Assembly (NCBI GenBank): GCA_029838215.1
Contig: JALGVI010000012.1
Location: 1-64,000, forward strand
Direction of reading: 5' to 3'
Origin: Candidatus Helarchaeota archaeon
GTDB lineage: Archaea > Asgardarchaeota > Lokiarchaeia > Helarchaeales > RDOG01
Length of the DNA stretch: 64,000 nt
Part shown: positions 1 to 9,006 of the stretch, piece by piece
How the letters are laid out: each line of letters begins with the position of its first letter
Numbering within the stretch: the first letter of the stretch is position 1
The notes under the pieces: model-generated
Database searches by the model: none
Told to the model about the DNA's origin: nothing
The model's input: the letters and a program-made list of their open reading frames with translations, nothing else
Position numbers and translations under genes: made by a program

Positions 1-2591
1 TTTACTTCATCTCTTATTTTTTCTGCCAATTCATATCGTTTTTTGTTATTCATCCGCTTGATGGGACCAATCGGCTTCCCGAATACGACCCGAAGTTTAA
101 CAGGTGGAAACGGTGTTTCGGTTCCGCTAATGCCAACCGGCACGATATAAGTTGGTTCGCCTTCTTTCGCTAACTTTACGACACCAGCATATGTTTTCAA
201 CAGGACATCAGGTCGTTTTGTATCGGGAAACATTGCGACATACTTTCCTGCCTTTAAAGTCTCTTTGATCTTGAGCATTGCATCGAAATCTTCACGTGCA
301 GCGGTTTGTCTTAAGAAACCCAACGCGTCAAAAAGCGTTGCCGCCACGGGTGTTTGGTAAGTCTTCGTGTCCACGACGACGTGGACTTGTTTTTCTTGGA
401 AGATTGCATTGATCAAGATGAAGTCCAATTTGGAAGTGCTTTGCGTGGTAAAGATCACGCCACACCCATCATTTGGGATGTTTTCAAGTCCTCGGACTTT
501 GAAATCATATAGGTTATCGAGAATTAATTCGAATGCATCCTTTGCCGTATTGTAGAATAACTTGTCAATTTGTTGTGTTAGTCCAAGTTTTGCCCCTCTT
601 TTTCGAATTCGTGCAATGAAAGAATCCACGGGACTTAATTTGTAATATTTCTTCGGGCCTTTCCGTTCTTTCTTCACGCCCGTTATTCCCATTTGATCCG
701 TTATTTTTGACACGAGCTTTTCAACTCGTGATTTTGTCTCAACTTCCTGAAGGTCCTTTCGTGGAAGTCCTAGGGGTTTACTAATAAGCTGTTTCACGCG
801 ATCAAGGGGCGAAAAGGCCTGATCAATGGTTGTATCTTGGCTTGGATACTTGACTTTTCCGTCGTGAAGATCTTTAATGACTTGCATTAATTTTCGGGTT
901 TCTTCCTTTAATGTTTCATAAGGTAGGGTCTTACCATAATATTGATCATAGTAAATCGGTGGTCCTATGTTAAGTTCAATGGGATATCCCTTGGGCGGGA
1001 ATAGTAACTTCCAAATACCTTTTTTCATGGCGTGGTAGGAGCCTTTTATTGACATCGGAATGATGGGCGTTTCCGTTTCAATCGCCATTCGAATGGCACC
1101 AGTCTTACCCGTGTCGATGTCAATTTCCTTGTATGTGGTTTGTTGGGGATAAACGACAACATAACGCCCCCGTTTTACGAGTTCCTTGCCAATTTCAAAT
1201 GCTTGCTTATCGCTTTCGCCACGACCCACAGGGAATCCCGAAGCAGATAACGTCCAGCTTGACAATAGCGGTATTTCCGCCAGTTCTCTTTTCATCATGA
1301 ACCAGATTTTGTCGTCAAGTGGACGATTCTCAGTCTTATACAAATAACCATAATAATTGAGTCGATCTGGTGGCACGAGCTTCATGCCTTGAACCAAGAT
1401 GTCGATAAATGATTCGTGATTTGAACAGAGGATGGCTGGTCGCGTGTTCAGAATGAATTCCTTTCCGGTAATTTTAATATCGAAAAACGGAGGACCTGTA
1501 ACGAGATCGCATCCAAACCGGATGACAGCATTTGCAAAAGAATCAAAATATTCACCAACCGTTGGAACCTTTGAAATGGACTTGACCAATTTTCGATAAT
1601 TTGAATCGATTGGATTTTTTGGCTTTTTCTTTAGTGCTTCAAACTTGTCAACGACCATTTCATTAATGGTTTGTTCCGATAGCGGTTTTTGCTTTTTCAT
1701 TCGTTCTCTTTCTCGATAATTTCGACCGTATTCTTTTAATTCTTCGATTTTATTCATTAAATTATCCGTTAATTCCCGCAGGATATCATATGTTATTTCC
1801 TTATCATAATATTCATTATAATGAATGGGATCACCGATCTTGCAATACCAAATTCCTTTTTTCTGAGGGATGAATCCTCCCTTTGTAATGTCATGTAATC
1901 CATTATGTCCAACAGGGACTATTGGAATTTTATTTTGGATGGCAAGCCTGATTACACCCGTCTTGGCTTTTTGTTGTTTTTCAAGATTCCTGGTTCCCTC
2001 GGGATAAATGATTATGTTATTACCTCTTTTAATGAACTGGCTGGCAATCTCAAAAGATTTTTTATCTCTCAATTCCCGTTCTATTGGAAAAGCGGTCGAC
2101 ATCAGGATGGAGCCAATGATGGGCACGTTAAATAGTTGATATTTAGCAAGAAATATGGGCACGTCTCTTTTGGCAGCCCATTTAGTGAGCTTAAGGCTCT
2201 TGAGGATTCCAAATGGAGAAGGCACGTCATGAAGCGGTGTCAGTGCTTCAGCCAAATAAAGATGCTCCGTCTCCGTTTCGTGGTTACAGGCAAAGATCAC
2301 GGGCGTATCGTAAGTAGTTATTTTTTCCTTCCCATCAACAATACCCTTAATTTGCGTGTTGAAAAGCTTGATGATGGACTCTAAAATTAATAAACTTCCA
2401 AAATCAGCAACGAGATCTAAGAATGGAAACCGCTGGATTGCCTTGCGCCGGGACCAACGAATGAATTTATCAATGGGATTTAGACTGGTCCCTTCAATCT
2501 CCTCCATTCTATTCAAAATGATTTCTGAATTATGCATTCCACCGTCTTGAAACTCGGGAATTTTACCAAAAAAATCTTGGACTGCAGTCAT
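1..2591 (-). CDS. Triple-domain PlsC/LPLAT-family acyltransferase (at least 863 aa; 3' end runs off the window)
   Basis: Not in the ORF track. I translated it by hand: ATG at 2591, open frame with no stop down to position 3. Three acyltransferase units: NHETETE..YPEGTR, NHESFID..YPQQTT and TQSTSKLD..FPDTKR. The first two continue with KTGV/AIRL/MAI..PIVP/PIIP and IGDPI/IGPPI; the third with GVVKLA..IVPVG and FGKPI. Confidence 0.88.
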   Translation of the reverse strand, partial: MTAVQDFFGKIPEFQDGGMHNSEIILNRMEEIEGTSLNPIDKFIRWSRRKAIQRFPFLDLVADFGSLLILESIIKLFNTQIKGIVDGKEKITTYDTPVIFACNHETETEHLYLAEALTPLHDVPSPFGILKSLKLTKWAAKRDVPIFLAKYQLFNVPIIGSILMSTAFPIERELRDKKSFEIASQFIKRGNNIIIYPEGTRNLEKQQKAKTGVIRLAIQNKIPIVPVGHNGLHDITKGGFIPQKKGIWYCKIGDPIHYNEYYDKEITYDILRELTDNLMNKIEELKEYGRNYRERERMKKQKPLSEQTINEMVVDKFEALKKKPKNPIDSNYRKLVKSISKVPTVGEYFDSFANAVIRFGCDLVTGPPFFDIKITGKEFILNTRPAILCSNHESFIDILVQGMKLVPPDRLNYYGYLYKTENRPLDDKIWFMMKRELAEIPLLSSWTLSASGFPVGRGESDKQAFEIGKELVKRGRYVVVYPQQTTYKEIDIDTGKTGAIRMAIETETPIIPMSIKGSYHAMKKGIWKLLFPPKGYPIELNIGPPIYYDQYYGKTLPYETLKEETRKLMQVIKDLHDGKVKYPSQDTTIDQAFSPLDRVKQLISKPLGLPRKDLQEVETKSRVEKLVSKITDQMGITGVKKERKGPKKYYKLSPVDSFIARIRKRGAKLGLTQQIDKLFYNTAKDAFELILDNLYDFKVRGLENIPNDGCGVIFTTQSTSKLDFILINAIFQEKQVHVVVDTKTYQTPVAATLFDALGFLRQTAAREDFDAMLKIKETLKAGKYVAMFPDTKRPDVLLKTYAGVVKLAKEGEPTYIVPVGISGTETPFPPVKLRVVFGKPIGPIKRMNNKKRYELAEKIRDEV

Positions 2592-2654
2592 CTTGACATC
2601 CTAACCTATCTATTTTCATGAACTTGAAAAAGCTGGCAAATTTGCACGACACAA

Positions 2655-2808
2655 TTGCAAGCTTGCCATAAATTTGAACTAAAACTTCAAAATTTGCATG
2701 ATTTTTTTCTAAACCTTGCAAGCTTGCCTATTTTTTACCATCTTTTCATTAATTTTGATAAGAAAACTGAGTTTCCTATATAAATATTCCCGATTGCAAG
2801 CTTGCAAT
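2655..2808. promoter_or_regulatory. Three copies of palindrome GCAAGCTTGC (putative operator array) next to a TATA-like box
   Basis: GCAAGCTTGC occurs at 2657-2666, 2718-2727 and 2796-2805; the last extends to the perfect 16-bp palindrome ATTGCAAGCTTGCAAT (2793-2808). A minus-strand TTTATATA lies at about 2778-2785, upstream of the acyltransferase gene. Confidence 0.6.
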
Positions 2809-2856
2809 TATATGACTAAAAAATAGGTAAAAAAAGAGTTTTTTAAAGGATTTTTT

Positions 2857-3579
2857 TCATTTTAGCTTCCAAATACCAATTGCGATGATCACGAGTCCCA
2901 ATGTAATGAACAAAATGCTTTGGATCTCGACATAGATCACGGTTATCACGTTGTAGAAAAGCCATTCGGCGATTCTCATCATGTTCTGCGGTTGCTCGAT
3001 TCCTCCAAGTAGCATGATGAAATAGCCAATACCCAAAGCAAGAGAAAATGATCTGATGCTACCCGAACTTTTAGCCGCAAGATAGAAGTAAACACACGGT
3101 ATGATAAATACAAGTAAGAGATTGAAGTAACTGAATGGAGGAGTAACGAACGTCAAGGCAAAATGTGTTGTCAATGCCATGATTATCATAATAGCCGTAA
3201 AAGCACAGTAGATGATCGTGAAAGCGTATTTCGTCTTTTGATTCCAGATTTGATTTTCAATTGCAAACATGAGAACGATTAAAGAAATCATCGTGAGTGC
3301 CGACCACGTGAACTCTAAACGCACTTCTATCCACGGATTTAATATGGGAATGAAATATTTGAAGATGTAATTCGTGAATAAACGTCCCAGATAGGCAACG
3401 AAATTAATAAGAAAAAACAACGCCAAACCAAGTTCGTAAATTGCCTTTGTTTCTTTCCGCTTTTCAAGGTATTTCCTGAGAAAGTATGTCGCAAAGGCGA
3501 AGACGAAACATTGATCTATGATCGTTAGGACGATGACGAGAATCGCAATTGGAATGGGAGTTGGAACGATTACTGCCAT
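2857..3579 (-). CDS. Stand-alone 7-TM membrane protein
   Basis: About seven hydrophobic segments and no soluble output domain; similar layout to 42455-43246. Confidence 0.75.
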   Translation of the reverse strand: MAVIVPTPIPIAILVIVLTIIDQCFVFAFATYFLRKYLEKRKETKAIYELGLALFFLINFVAYLGRLFTNYIFKYFIPILNPWIEVRLEFTWSALTMISLIVLMFAIENQIWNQKTKYAFTIIYCAFTAIMIIMALTTHFALTFVTPPFSYFNLLLVFIIPCVYFYLAAKSSGSIRSFSLALGIGYFIMLLGGIEQPQNMMRIAEWLFYNVITVIYVEIQSILFITLGLVIIAIGIWKLK

Positions 3580-3939
3580 TTAAGTCACACTGCATCAAAA
3601 TCTTGAGGATTTAAAAATTGGTCCGCATTTGTTATTAAGATTTCTGTTTGATTTCAGGAAAAACAATTATTGAAACAACTTGGAATCATGAGGAGTCGTA
3701 TAAAATGGTTTTTGCAATCATTGATGTTAAGTTTGCAGGATTCTCTTTAAAAAAATTAGTTTTCGGCAATGGATTTCAATTATAATTCAAGCAAACACGG
3801 TTTTTGTCTTAAATTTTCTTTCCTAGTCGTTTTTTTAACAAAAGACATGATCATTTTCTTATCCAAGTAAAGACATATATAAGATTAATTTATGAAATTG
3901 AATCTTAGAGAGATGTAAATAGATGTCTTTAGGTGGTTA

Positions 3940-6900
3940 TTGATGAAGAAAAAATCAGTATTCAATTGCCTGATTGTTTGTTCTCTTTTACTCTTACAAA
4001 TCAGCATGTTGATTCATTCACCCCTGTTTACGTTCCTTTCCGTTCTAGGGGCTCCTAGATTCGGTGAAACGAACAGTAGTCAGCCAGTTTTTGCCCCCGA
4101 TGATCCTCAATATGCGATATCTTCTGCTGCGGGCTCACCTCCTATAGTCTCGACAGATCCCGCAATTTATTTTGGGAACGGGCTAACATCCGCTTCATTT
4201 ACCTATAATTTTACTTCGAACACGAAAATGTTTAGTAGTACCTCTTTGGATTATTATCATCCCACAGAAGGATACAACATTAGTTCATTTGGGTTTGATT
4301 TTATCGGTCTCAAAACGGATTATACAATAAATACCGAAACCGATTTCATTGATGATAATTTATTTCAGCTGGATCGAGATAAATTGAGTTATGCAATGTC
4401 ATTTCGAACCGAGAATTTCAGCGGCCTTCTTTCCGGTTTTGAACTTAGGCTAAATCCCACGGTACAAGGTTCAATTTTTGCAGAAGTTTGGACCAGTACA
4501 TGGAATTCGCTTCTGCAAAGACCCGAGCCAAATGCTGTCATTGGTGCATTCATCGGAAATACTCAAGGAGCAGGATGGGATTGGATAGCGTTTGATGGAA
4601 ATTTAGTATTCCTAAACGTGAGCGAGACTTATGATCAAACCTACTTTATTTGTCCATATTCAAAATTATCCATTTTGAAGCCATATTGGGCATATTGTAA
4701 TGATACGGTAGTCTATGACCAAGTTGATGAGGGTTTTGCGCTCGAAACAGGAAATGGTGGCGTGAGTTGGAATAATGCCACGAATGGTGATACAATCGAT
4801 TTTTCAGTACAAAATATTGTATTTTCGGAAGCATATCCAACCCCAAGCCAAGTTGACTTACGCGTGAATGGAACTGCTGTTCAAAACGGCGATGTAGATC
4901 GATTTACCCAGAAATCTAATGGAACATGGCAAGGAACGAACATAGGTGGGAATTCCGAGTATATTTATTTCAATTTCACGACAAATTTCACTCAACCGAT
5001 ATCTTTTGATCTCATGTATAATGGTTCTGCCGTGAATGATTCACGGGTTGAAACGCTTTGTCGAGTTGAAGCGAATGTATATCACGTTGATTGGAATGTG
5101 ACATTTGACATGGAAATGCCTGCTTCAAGTTTTTGGCAGCTAAACCGTGATCAACTGATGAACATCACCATTCCATCGAATTGGACTATTGAAGAGGTAT
5201 ACAATTATTCGAATCCCATCGTTTATTCCACGGATACGCAAGGATCTAGCACGTTCGTTTATATCAATGATAGAACGGGTTCAATTGTAATTGAGTGTAA
5301 TGGAACCAATTTTGTGAGAAACATATTCCATTATAATTGGACGGATAGCACTCAATATGAAAATTACCTGATGAATGATACACTGAAAGTAAATGCTTCA
5401 GTAAACGTGGAATCGGCAATAAAAGCGAATCTGACGGTATTCGATCCGACAAATAATTCTGTCTATACAAATACGACGCAAATTCAAAACGAAGTGGCCA
5501 GCTTCTTCCCTTTTCAATTGATCAACGTTTCGCAAAGAAATGGAACGCATTTGTTACGCGTGGTTTGGTTTAATGGCACGCAAGTTGGGATGAATCTTAC
5601 CAGTTGTTATGTATATAACGATCCAACAATGCTCACGCTCGTGAATCAAAATCCTTCCACGCCCGTTGAACAGGGTCAATTCGTGGATATTCAACTGTAT
5701 TATAATGACACGCATACAGGAGAAGGAATTGGAAGTGCAACGATAAGCAGTAACTGGACTTACTCTTTTTTAAATACTGTCGATCATCATAATGGTACCT
5801 ATGATTTGTCGTTAAATACAGCGTTTGCTCCTGCCGGCAATCACTCGATCAATTTCACGGCTGTTAAACCGGGATATGAACAATCCATCGTCTTTACATG
5901 GATAAATATAACGGAAACATTTGAGAAAACGAATCTTACCATTGAATTTATCTCATCCCCCATCTACGTGAATGATACTTTCATAGACAATAAATATGCG
6001 ATTATCAAGTATGTCAACGCCAGTGATGGCGAGGGAATTCCAGGTGCCCATATTCGAACAACGCCCTCATGGAGTGAATCTTATTTTGATGCGATTGATC
6101 TTTCGATTGAGAACGAAAGCGCCAGAGGCTTGTATAAAGTTCCTCTTCAGACTATTGGAACTCATGCTGAAATTTCATATGGAATCCGTTTTTATGCAAG
6201 TAAAATCGAAGACGGCTTTGGTCCTTCGGATAATTACACGCATATTCTCGTCCATGCTATTCCAACCGAAATAATAACAAGTGGATATGATAACCTTACA
6301 ATATTCGAAGGTGAAAGCACGGGTATTTCTGCATATGTCGTGGATGCTGTTCACACGGGGAATCCTCCTGTTCTTAATGCAGAGGTGAATTGGACGGTAA
6401 ATCATTCTGGACAATCTGGAGAAATGGATCTAAACATTGTCATTTATGAAGGACTGATCGATGCCCCTGCAGAAAATATTCCGCCGGGAACTTACAACGT
6501 GACGATCAGGTCATCTGCTGAAGATTTTGAATCTGGACAAAAAAACATAACTCTAAACGTCTTGCCAAAATGGGAAACCTACCTGAATATCCAAACGATA
6601 AATGACTCGGAAATTCAAGCAGGACGAAGCATGACGATTGCGGTGAATATTACATTCAGTAATGCCTCGCTAGATCGCTCAAATAGGGTTATCCTTTTTA
6701 ACTTGACGGACCCACAGAATAATAGTTATGTTGAAACACGAGTAACAAACCAATCGGGAATTGCTCTCTTCGAAATCAACCCGATTCCAAACATTACGTG
6801 GATTGACGTGAATGTTTCATATGATGGCACCGAACAAATTGCAGCAAACTATTCCGCAGAACGAATAACGATATTATCTCCTTTTAGAACGAAGATTCTT

Positions 6901-9006
6901 ATCAATGATACTATTCTTGACGATGAATTGATCTCGGGTGAAATTGTTGAACTAAATGTCACGATTTATTATAACTCAACAGAAGGTTGGCAACCCCTTT
7001 CCAATGAGAACTTGAAAGTAGAATTAGATTATGGATTTGGGCAAGATGAATCATACATTTTAACCACGGATCAGAATGGACAAATATCGGGTGAGATCGA
7101 CCCACCAGAATTCGCAGGAACCCTTCAAGTCCGTGTAATATTTAGCGGAAACGACACCTTTGAATATTGTCAAAACTTCTCAAAGACTTTCACGATATCA
7201 AAGCGAAACGTTACCGTTCAATTAACCAGTACCCTTCCCGCACAAATATTTGTTGGCATGTCAATAACATTACAGGTTCGGATTCTTTATAATGAAACCG
7301 AAAATCCTGTCGTAAATAAATCCGTAACATTCATCTTTCAATTTGTCGGCGTGCTGGAAATTGAACAAAAAGCCCAGACAGACGTGAATGGTATTGCTAC
7401 CACCACATTCCAAATCCCTGATTCTGCAAGCCTTGCAGATTTCATGGTAATCGTGATACGATTTGAAGGGGATGAAAGCGTTGCCTTTCTTGAAACGGAA
7501 GCCGTGGGGCAAGTTGGTGTCATGACAGTTTCAAAATTGATATTCCAGAATCTTTGGTGGATAATCATACTCGGTGCTGCAATTTCAAGTATAGCCGTGG
7601 GTTATAATTACGGTATTAGGCGTCCTAGAATTCGGCGAAGAATCAAGGCAATGAAGAAAAGAGCACGAAGATTACAAGATGCGTTAAATCTTGCTCATTT
7701 GATGGTGATACATAAAGAATCCAGTGCCGTTGTATATTCTGAAAGTTTTGGAGAAGAAATTCAGGCAGATCTCATTGGAGGCTTCATGACAGCCATTTCG
7801 GCATTCCAACAAGAAATCAAGGTAAAAAAGAAATCCAGTGGCATTCAAGATGAAAGAGGTTTCGAGCTCAGTTATCAGAATTTCAAGATCTTGTTGATGG
7901 ATCGGGAATGGAGTCGCGTGTCCTTTATCCTGTACGAAAGTCCGAGTCCAGAATTCCGGGAAAAAGCACGCGCTTTTCTCGAGGATTTCGATAGAGAATT
8001 CGCTCCCATAATGAAGGAATTTGATGGATCGATGTCGCCATTTAAAACAATTAATCAAAAAACATCAAAATACTTGGATACGGATCTTGCAAAACCCTTT
8101 AATCTTGCCAGTTTATCCATTAGGCAAAGAAGAAAATTAAACGACATGCAACAGGGAATCATTCACATATCATCACGGCAATTGGAGAAAAAAGGTCTGA
8201 TCAGATTAGCAATGGTCATGGAAACATTGAAAACTGCTCGAAACGAACCAGACTACGTGCTATATTGTGCCTTGGACGATTTAATTCAAGAAAAAATTCT
8301 ATTTCCATTAACAGAGGAAGATGCCAGACAAGTGGACATGCAATCTTTGATAGAAACTGCCGAAAAAGGAGATCTCACGCAAGAAACTCCCGGACAACCC
8401 AGTTCGTCCCAAGCTACTACAGTAAAAACACCTGTTGAAGAAATGGAGCTTGGGCTGGAACCCGGTGAAGTCATTGCTTTGGGATTATCCGAAGAAGAAG
8501 AAGAGCGAGTACATGATGAATTTAAATCAATGAGTTCAACCAATAAGAGACTCGTTCTAAACATGTATAATGGCACGCCAAAAGATCAGAAAAAGAAATT
8601 TCTGCGGGAATTCCTTAAAGAACGCAAGAAGTTGCGGAAAAATCTATTGAAACTACAAAAGGAAGCGGAAAAACTCCGAAAAAAGGGCAAAAAACTAGAA
8701 GAGTTCCAGAAATTAGAAATGATCAAGGCAATCAATGAAGAACTCGGCGAAGAAGAAATTGCCACTCAAGTCGCAACAGAAATTCAAGAGTTACTTACCA
8801 CGTTCGATAGCATTAAGGAACACAAACAACTACGATTGAAAACCGCAACGGCAGAAAAACACGCGGAATGGCACGCCTCGAAACGAGACTTTCTACGCGC
8901 TGCACTTTTCTATAGAAAGGCGGCACGATTTTCTCTTGAAGTTGGAAATATTGACGAAGCAACACGACTAGCAGAGCTTGCAAGCGAAGCAGAAGCCCGA
9001 GACTAA
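3940..9006 (+). CDS. Large single-pass surface glycoprotein with cytoplasmic longin-like, wHTH-like and helical domains
   Basis: Signal peptide (MMKKKSVFNCLIVCSLLLL), then about 1170 aa of beta-rich sequence dense in N-x-S/T sequons, TM helix WWIIILGAAISSIAVGY near aa 1206, and LMVIHKESSAVVYSESF..DLIGGFMTAISAFQQEI (longin-like pattern). Confidence 0.8.
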   Translation: MMKKKSVFNCLIVCSLLLLQISMLIHSPLFTFLSVLGAPRFGETNSSQPVFAPDDPQYAISSAAGSPPIVSTDPAIYFGNGLTSASFTYNFTSNTKMFSSTSLDYYHPTEGYNISSFGFDFIGLKTDYTINTETDFIDDNLFQLDRDKLSYAMSFRTENFSGLLSGFELRLNPTVQGSIFAEVWTSTWNSLLQRPEPNAVIGAFIGNTQGAGWDWIAFDGNLVFLNVSETYDQTYFICPYSKLSILKPYWAYCNDTVVYDQVDEGFALETGNGGVSWNNATNGDTIDFSVQNIVFSEAYPTPSQVDLRVNGTAVQNGDVDRFTQKSNGTWQGTNIGGNSEYIYFNFTTNFTQPISFDLMYNGSAVNDSRVETLCRVEANVYHVDWNVTFDMEMPASSFWQLNRDQLMNITIPSNWTIEEVYNYSNPIVYSTDTQGSSTFVYINDRTGSIVIECNGTNFVRNIFHYNWTDSTQYENYLMNDTLKVNASVNVESAIKANLTVFDPTNNSVYTNTTQIQNEVASFFPFQLINVSQRNGTHLLRVVWFNGTQVGMNLTSCYVYNDPTMLTLVNQNPSTPVEQGQFVDIQLYYNDTHTGEGIGSATISSNWTYSFLNTVDHHNGTYDLSLNTAFAPAGNHSINFTAVKPGYEQSIVFTWINITETFEKTNLTIEFISSPIYVNDTFIDNKYAIIKYVNASDGEGIPGAHIRTTPSWSESYFDAIDLSIENESARGLYKVPLQTIGTHAEISYGIRFYASKIEDGFGPSDNYTHILVHAIPTEIITSGYDNLTIFEGESTGISAYVVDAVHTGNPPVLNAEVNWTVNHSGQSGEMDLNIVIYEGLIDAPAENIPPGTYNVTIRSSAEDFESGQKNITLNVLPKWETYLNIQTINDSEIQAGRSMTIAVNITFSNASLDRSNRVILFNLTDPQNNSYVETRVTNQSGIALFEINPIPNITWIDVNVSYDGTEQIAANYSAERITILSPFRTKILINDTILDDELISGEIVELNVTIYYNSTEGWQPLSNENLKVELDYGFGQDESYILTTDQNGQISGEIDPPEFAGTLQVRVIFSGNDTFEYCQNFSKTFTISKRNVTVQLTSTLPAQIFVGMSITLQVRILYNETENPVVNKSVTFIFQFVGVLEIEQKAQTDVNGIATTTFQIPDSASLADFMVIVIRFEGDESVAFLETEAVGQVGVMTVSKLIFQNLWWIIILGAAISSIAVGYNYGIRRPRIRRRIKAMKKRARRLQDALNLAHLMVIHKESSAVVYSESFGEEIQADLIGGFMTAISAFQQEIKVKKKSSGIQDERGFELSYQNFKILLMDREWSRVSFILYESPSPEFREKARAFLEDFDREFAPIMKEFDGSMSPFKTINQKTSKYLDTDLAKPFNLASLSIRQRRKLNDMQQGIIHISSRQLEKKGLIRLAMVMETLKTARNEPDYVLYCALDDLIQEKILFPLTEEDARQVDMQSLIETAEKGDLTQETPGQPSSSQATTVKTPVEEMELGLEPGEVIALGLSEEEEERVHDEFKSMSSTNKRLVLNMYNGTPKDQKKKFLREFLKERKKLRKNLLKLQKEAEKLRKKGKKLEEFQKLEMIKAINEELGEEEIATQVATEIQELLTTFDSIKEHKQLRLKTATAEKHAEWHASKRDFLRAALFYRKAARFSLEVGNIDEATRLAELASEAEARD

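Follow-up and report, generated by a model that had tools for sequence, protein, structure and literature searches.

A three-module LPLAT protein of Helarchaeales and its conserved operon with a candidate split Ger/PlsA-like reductase

The gene and the three units of its product

The DNA analysed here, called the window throughout, comprises positions 1 to 64,000 (forward strand) of contig JALGVI010000012.1 from a Candidatus Helarchaeota archaeon of the order Helarchaeales, that is, the first 64 kb of contig C1 in an assembly (GCA_029838215.1) of 3.62 Mb, 170 contigs and 94% completeness. At its very start lies the gene for a protein with three tandem PlsC-like acyltransferase domains (hereafter the tri-LPLAT protein), which heads an operon that continues on another contig of the same assembly. 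In an open-ended listing of open reading frames (ORFs), the gene is a minus-strand frame at 3..2591 that opens with ATG, runs for 863 codons and meets no stop before the window edge. The first 114 bases of contig C104 are identical to the reverse complement of the window start (1..114), an overlap that joins the gene to the rest of the operon. Because C104 supplies 20 further codons and a TAA, the predicted protein has 883 residues, provided that the join between C1 and C104 is real. The tail encoded by C104 matches the C-terminus of an ortholog of 885 residues (P0003, 70% identical).

A preliminary description of the locus had reported one uninterrupted minus-strand frame with three LPLAT units, had called for extension of the contig as far as the stop codon, and had expected three matches to the acyltransferase profile PF01553. 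The open-ended ORF bears out the frame, the stop lies on C104, and PF01553 indeed matches three separate stretches. When the thirds of the protein were scanned singly, they scored 64.9, 62.6 and 43.5 bits against a cut-off of 23 bits (E = 8e-18 at residues 85-228, 4e-17 at 372-516 and 3e-11 at 697-822). Neither a stop nor a frameshift separates the units in any of the seven genomes of the order, or in 21 aligned orthologs of 868-907 residues. The best NCBIfam model is TIGR00530, 1-acylglycerol-3-phosphate acyltransferase, with 136.5 bits summed over the three units against a cut-off of 102.95 bits, and weak NCBIfam matches include ornithine-lipid and glycine-lipid acyltransferases. In a profile search of the whole genome, the tri-LPLAT protein holds the only PF01553 domains.

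Each unit consists of two predicted helices followed by a core (all coordinates in this paragraph are on the minus strand). Unit 1 (residues 30-295; 1707..2504), with its two helices at the N-terminal side of an LPLAT core, has its PF01553 match at 1908-2339. Its motif I, which in canonical form holds the catalytic dyad H-x4-D, reads NHETETE (residues 103-109; 2265..2285), with H104 and E109 forming H-x4-E, and its phosphate-binding motif III, (P)EGTR, is canonical (PEGTR, residues 197-201; 1989..2003). Unit 2 (residues 315-590; 822..1649; PF01553 at 1044-1478) keeps H-x4-D in NHESFID (residues 391-397; 1401..1421), with H392 and D397 as the dyad, and has PQQTT (residues 482-486; 1134..1148) in place of PEGTR. 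Unit 3 (residues 645-863 and on; 3..659; PF01553 at 126-503) has an LPLAT-like core with Ser at the catalytic His site, within TQSTSKLD (residues 716-723; 423..446), and FPDTKR at the position of motif III (residues 788-793; 213..230). All motifs quoted in the preliminary description sit at these places.

An AlphaFold2 (AF2) model of the protein, with a mean pLDDT of 73 and a pTM of 0.48, shows two long helices before each core. The top Foldseek match is PlsC of T. maritima (5KYM; probability 1.0, TM-score by target 0.56-0.58), followed by human GPAT1 (8E4Y), squash GPAT (1K30) and PatA (5F2Z), all with probability 1.0, and in a sequence search against solved chains 5KYM was the sole match, through units 1 (E = 5e-5) and 2 (E = 3e-9) only. 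On this model each unit is a complete PlsC/GPAT-fold (LPLAT) module, in which two long helices lead into an alpha/beta core; these helices may resemble the membrane-docking helices of T. maritima PlsC. The most hydrophobic 19-residue segment of the protein (1.58, at residues 56-74) stays below the transmembrane level; the protein has no predicted membrane-spanning helix and is probably attached to one membrane face. The likeness to 5KYM comprises PF01553 in each unit, PEGTR in unit 1, NHxSxxD in unit 2 and the two helices before the core. Unlike 5KYM, the tri-LPLAT protein has an archaeal host and joins three modules in one chain, with Glu for the dyad Asp in unit 1, PQQTT for PEGTR in unit 2 and no catalytic His in unit 3.

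Conservation, distribution and origin of the units

A word-indexed search returned 29 relatives with 48-83% identity, most of them 868-907 residues long, and those with a named source come from metagenome-assembled genomes of Helarchaeota, Lokiarchaeota, Hodarchaeota or Promethearchaeota. Motif conservation was read from an alignment of 21 full-length sequences, to which the residue states given here refer and which is colinear from the N-terminus (MTAV...) through every unit boundary. In unit 1, the residues N103, H104, E105, T106, E107, E109 and H110 are invariant, the catalytic positions among them, and so are P197-N202 (PEGTRN), which gives the pattern NHETExE plus PEGTR. Unit 2 is invariant from S390 to F395, with D or E at 397, and its motif III, P482 Q483 (Q) (T) T486, is conserved across the order. 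In unit 3, Ser replaces His and motif III varies; D723, LGF-R (residues 757-761) and many Gly, Pro and Thr positions are invariant.

Mean pairwise identity is 0.72 in the core of unit 1, 0.68 in that of unit 2 and 0.65 in that of unit 3, compared with about 0.5 in the linkers. The units are therefore under similar constraint, and their motif variants are fixed features. The preliminary description had spoken of "staggered motif decay", and decay is the wrong word: each variant is invariant or nearly so among the 21 orthologs, and the core of unit 3 is about as conserved as the other two. Neither does the H-x4-E of unit 1 have to be a loss, given that LpxM, an enzyme of the LPLAT fold, uses a catalytic Glu (5KNK, E127A). 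The lipid A secondary acyltransferases LpxM and LpxL (5KN7, 5KNK) share with unit 1 both this fold and a His/Glu dyad, although they are a distant structural match (E = 6e-4, TM-score by target 0.38), act on another acceptor and belong to a Pfam family other than PF01553. To judge from its motifs, unit 3 is probably a pseudo-enzyme. The earlier suggestion of pseudo-enzyme domains is thus supported for this unit, and that of a different acceptor for each unit is plausible.

A survey of the architecture across Asgard genomes, as proposed in the preliminary description, confined the triple form to Helarchaeales: full-length triple matches were found in all seven genomes of the order, which represent three families, and in no other of the 400 genomes surveyed from the phylum. 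Of 1.84 billion cluster representatives, searched exhaustively with HMMER, only three matched at E <= 1e-30, namely the triple family itself, one fragment of it named Helarchaeota, and one two-domain protein of 561 residues. The triple form is unique; tandem LPLATs as such are not. In a sister family (f6), 125 of 135 genomes match at E <= 1e-10, the best matches being proteins of ~555 residues with two PF01553 domains, and at the two f6 loci that we read a separate unit-3-like PF01553 protein of ~235 residues is encoded within the cluster or close to it. Lokiarchaeota CR_4 carries its LPLAT modules as three individual genes, and the three closed genomes of another family (f5) have one canonical LPLAT gene each, with an additional His-less gene in two of them. 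Two-domain PF01553 proteins of 440-465 residues also occur outside Asgard archaea (P0200 from Patescibacteria, P0186, P0219, P0248 and P0299), and such fusions therefore arose more than once.

The modules of the sister lineages can be sorted into three types. Type A has NHxSxxD as motif I and PEGTR as motif III, type B has xHNSEWD and PEGTT, and type C, together with the second f5 gene, lacks the His of motif I and has a degenerate motif III. Written in the same way, unit 2 of the triple protein has NHESFx(D/E) and PQQTT and unit 1 has NHETExE and PEGTR; the change from Arg to Thr in motif III is common to unit 2 and type B. A maximum-likelihood tree (LG+C20) unites unit 3 with type C (support 99/98), and the second f5 gene attaches to this group (92/91). 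The sister of unit 1 is unit 2 (99/96), with which it shares 31% identity over 279 residues, helices included, and the pair joins type B at 83/77, with type A outside.

Constraining unit 1 with type A was rejected by the approximately unbiased (AU) test (p = 1e-4), and with it a simple A-B-C end-to-end fusion for this unit; constraining unit 2 with type B was not rejected (p = 0.066). Both tests used groups chosen with the tree already in view, and the sister relation of units 1 and 2 could instead reflect gene conversion between them inside a single gene. Decay of unit 3 after the fusion was likewise rejected by the tree, where the stand-alone His-less C proteins make the His-less state older than the fusion. 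The tree places unit 3 as an ortholog of these C proteins in sister lineages, and the triple protein is best read as a duplicated B-like module to which an anciently His-less C module has been fused. The LPLAT sets of sister Lokiarchaeia (e.g. OLS13363.1 of Lokiarchaeota CR_4, TFG24113.1) share with it the same operon, the His-less type C and the Arg-to-Thr change of type B. They differ from it in having A, B and C as separate proteins, or A-B half-fused with C apart, in the canonical HX4D and PEGTR of their type A, and in a HAD protein without the C-terminal domain of ~265 residues described below.

The operon and its reductase-like proteins

At three distant homolog loci, the triple acyltransferase stands with a HAD hydrolase of ~490 residues, a DUF2229+HGD-D protein, a DUF2229 protein and a BcrAD_BadFG ATPase. 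In the window's genome the tri-LPLAT gene comes first, and C104 continues with the HAD, DUF2229/HGD-D, DUF2229 and BcrAD_BadFG genes. By phmmer, this gene set is present at 13 of the 13 loci examined, which comprise that of the own genome, six others of the order and six of three sister families. Gene order is largely kept among them, the fusion state of the acyltransferases varies, and one f6 genome is rearranged. The operon is conserved throughout the archaeal class. PF09989 occurs in the window's genome in this cluster only, and in only 4 of 14 control genomes, two of which, those of T. maritima and L. lactis, have a documented Ger or PlsA (PMC13159169, PMC12838417).

The domain set PF01869, PF09989 and PF06050 is spread over three C104 proteins of 355, 375 and 334 residues. 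The 355-residue DUF2229/HGD-D protein is 35-40% identical to fused forms of ~730 residues that combine both DUF2229-type proteins, and 28-35% identical, over ~90% of the length and with E down to 3e-45, to proteins of ~1400 residues with PF01869 and PF09989 (and PF06050); it also matches HadC, BcrC and double-cubane reductases weakly. Three Cys are invariant in this protein and four in the DUF2229 protein, and the ATPase (L007:3960-4964, locus L007 being that on C104) has two invariant Cys and a C-terminal CxxCxxxC...C (residues 302-329) that is invariant in 9/9 orthologs. These conserved sets fit Fe-S proteins, and the C-terminal motif of the ATPase, lying beyond its two activase-type Cys, suggests an extra Fe-S site.

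Ger of T. maritima, with two PF01869 domains, PF09989 (its "reduction" domain) and PF06050, converts an sn-1 ester to an alkyl ether, as shown by Sahonero-Canavesi et al., who also list homologs from Asgard archaea (PMC13159169); in our literature searches, this paper and its follow-ups were the only ones to link Ger with Asgard archaea. PlsA in turn has two activation and two reduction/dehydration domains (PMC12838417). The C104 proteins resemble Ger (T. maritima, D. alkenivorans) and PlsA/PlsR in having PF01869 for activation and PF09989 with PF06050 for reduction/dehydration, and in their conserved Cys, a likeness that draws on the published architecture and on the ~1400-residue family. In the archaeal set the domains are distributed over three proteins, and there is a single ATPase domain where Ger and PlsA have two. 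We found no bacterial operon described in the literature that combines an ester-to-ether reductase, an acyltransferase and a HAD protein. The closed f5 genomes (G134, G137 and G142; e.g. G137:C1:5179252-5179911) hold, besides the split cluster, one to three fully fused DUF2229 proteins of ~1430-1490 residues elsewhere, which probably account for the "Ger homologs" that have been reported from Lokiarchaeota in culture; the window's genome has none.

The HAD protein is of the small-molecule HAD-IA type, and its best NCBIfam matches are phosphoglycolate phosphatases. Its gene is broken on C104 at L007 ~960-993, where four orthologs keep ~25 codons between GDxxTD and "DHITDL"; the break leaves ORFs of 209 (HAD) and 266 residues (C-terminal domain) in place of one protein of ~490, and may be genuine or result from an error of assembly. 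The C-terminal domain of ~265 residues (L003:9331-10125 and orthologs; L007:962-1762) is confined to the order of the window. Seven sequences of it share 51 invariant positions; its AF2 model is all-helical but of low confidence (pLDDT 54), and it has no Pfam, NCBIfam or Atlas match. The rearranged cluster of the closed f6 genome (L014, G188:C1; genes at 2241-4838 on the minus and 5629-6822 on the plus strand) encodes a half-fused Ger-like form, a protein of 865 residues that matches the BcrAD_BadFG ATPase twice and then DUF2229/HGD-D; its gene is separated from that of the two-domain acyltransferase by one for a 3-hydroxyacyl-CoA dehydrogenase. On the other side of the tri-LPLAT gene, an upstream ORF of 240 residues (2857-3579, minus strand) was rejected as a member of the system, having no family match and no counterpart in the other loci. 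The divergent neighbour (window 3940-9006, plus strand) encodes a protein of 1688 residues whose sole Pfam match is a macroglobulin MG4 domain.

Possible functions and their meaning for archaeal lipids

Acyl-CoA is the likely acyl donor of the system, because in the window's genome, at its 94% completeness, PlsY (PF02660) and acyl carrier protein (ACP, PF00550) were not found, and 18 AMP-binding matches correspond to at least 10 acyl-CoA-ligase-type genes. The C-terminal domain of GpsA (PF07479) was not found either, and the genes for GGGPS and a G1PDH-like protein lie 3 kb apart on contig C91. Bacterial PlsC and PlsY take both stereoforms of glycerol phosphate (PMC13400652). To judge from this gene content, glycerol-1-phosphate (G1P) or an archaeal intermediate would be at least as likely an acceptor as glycerol-3-phosphate (G3P).

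The best explanation of the operon, to which we give about an even chance, is an acyl-CoA-dependent lipid-ester module that feeds an ether-forming reductase. Acyl-CoA would supply the acyl groups, and unit 1, with PEGTR intact, would acylate a phosphate-bearing glycerol acceptor, which may be G1P (which the genome can make), G3P or a lyso-lipid. Because unit 2 has lost the phosphate-binding Arg and the Glu of motif III, its acceptor would be held otherwise, and might be one dephosphorylated by the HAD enzyme. Unit 3 would be non-catalytic, a scaffold or a lipid-binding module, and the ATP-driven Fe-S reductase would then act on an ester bond in the product to give an alkyl or alkenyl ether. 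That one taxonomic order joins all three modules argues for their joint action, the triple chain serving as a "Rosetta stone" fusion for three paralogs, a conserved and catalytically dead one included. The link to ester and ether lipids in Asgard archaea, already drawn in the preliminary description, is strengthened by the operon with its HAD phosphatase and split PlsA/Ger-like reductase. The accompanying statement that PlsC-type enzymes are atypical for archaea needs qualifying, since PlsC homologs of Asgard archaea had already been published (PMC6737245, PMC6431249).

Several observations weigh against a module that makes esters and reduces them to ethers. The sole lipidomics so far of a cultured representative of Lokiarchaeota (Imachi 2020) gave archaeal phospholipids only, by a method that could miss ester lipids (PMC13400652), and Coleman et al. 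judged a role of archaeal PlsC homologs in membrane-lipid synthesis unlikely (PMC6431249). The likeness of the C104 proteins to Ger, PlsA and PlsR runs through domain architecture and the ~1400-residue family, which may hold other functions. Moreover, the HAD gene is disrupted in the window's genome (~25 codons missing and a change of frame), the AF2 model, at its pTM, does not fix the arrangement of the domains, and LPLAT-fold enzymes also acylate non-glycerol acceptors such as ornithine lipids, phosphatidylinositol mannosides and lipid A.

Some of the same evidence could be read as a Kennedy-type synthesis of neutral lipids, in which the LPLAT modules and the HAD protein make di- or triacylglycerol or alkyl-acylglycerol storage lipids. 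Glycerol phosphate would be acylated and dephosphorylated, and the neutral acceptor acylated again, a route that would buffer acyl-CoA in an organism rich in ligases. The constant presence of the HAD phosphatase in the operon points this way, as do the missing phosphate-binding Arg in motif III of unit 2 and of type-B modules, the abundance of acyl-CoA-ligase-type genes and the 3-hydroxyacyl-CoA dehydrogenase within the cluster of one sister genome. Plant GPAT4/6 join a HAD-like phosphatase to an LPLAT domain and make monoacylglycerol. We nevertheless consider this route improbable: a third acylation by unit 3 is unlikely with the catalytic His absent, the HAD protein is of the type of phosphoglycolate phosphatases and not of the lipin type, and the reductase genes are left unexplained.

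Rather unlikely, too, is the remodelling of archaeal lipids into hybrids, the reading of the preliminary description, whereby an isoprenoid ether intermediate, for instance geranylgeranylglyceryl phosphate (GGGP) or a lyso-archaeol lipid, is acylated at its free hydroxyl by one or more units to give mixed ether/ester lipids, which the reductase may turn into mixed diethers. The side-by-side GGGPS and G1PDH-like genes and the missing GpsA domain agree with it, GGGP is a structural analogue of lysophosphatidic acid, PlsC tolerates both backbone stereoforms (PMC13400652), and the idea has been raised for Lokiarchaeota in literature summarised in PMC6737245. On the other hand, no mixed lipids are reported in the cited literature, and the sequences give no pointer to an isoprenoid acceptor.

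We see little likelihood in a non-glycerolipid pathway, where the LPLATs would acylate an amino-lipid, a glycolipid or a small metabolite and the DUF2229/HGD-D and BcrAD proteins would form a radical enzyme, like 2-hydroxyacyl-CoA dehydratase, that works on the acyl-CoA donor: the many acceptor types spanned by PF01553, the weak ornithine- and glycine-lipid acyltransferase matches, those of the DUF2229/HGD-D protein to HadC, BcrC and double-cubane reductase, and the ~1400-residue family with only two members of known function would suit it, and against it stand TIGR00530 as the best NCBIfam match, PlsC as the closest solved structure, and PF09989, which is the "reduction" domain of Ger (PMC13159169) and occurs in just the four control genomes, two of them with documented Ger or PlsA.

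Returning to an acylating module coupled to an ether-forming reductase, a more far-reaching form of it can be proposed tentatively, as a possibility that we hold to be doubtful. The operon would then suffice by itself for making fatty-acyl-derived ether lipids in an archaeon, with G1P or isoprenoid lyso-intermediates as a possible starting point, unit 3 and type C would be non-catalytic, lipid-presenting subunits, and the triple fusion would channel intermediates between the two active sites and the reductase.

An open question to which these genes relate is the origin of the bacterial-type fatty-acyl lipids of eukaryotes, given the isoprenoid ethers of their archaeal ancestor. Homologs of PlsC and of Ger were already known in Asgard genomes, each listed separately; a literature search on acyltransferases of Helarchaeota turned up nothing relevant. 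Here, a single operon holds all acyltransferase modules of one genome along with a phosphatase and a Ger/PlsA-like reductase in split form, and the locus adds the order-specific triple fusion, the phylogeny of its units, their fixed motif states and the contig join. The compact set of five genes, together with H104 and H392 as sites for point mutants, makes the question of the lipid divide directly testable. If the proposed route is true, close relatives of the eukaryotic ancestor would make non-isoprenoid membrane or storage lipids.

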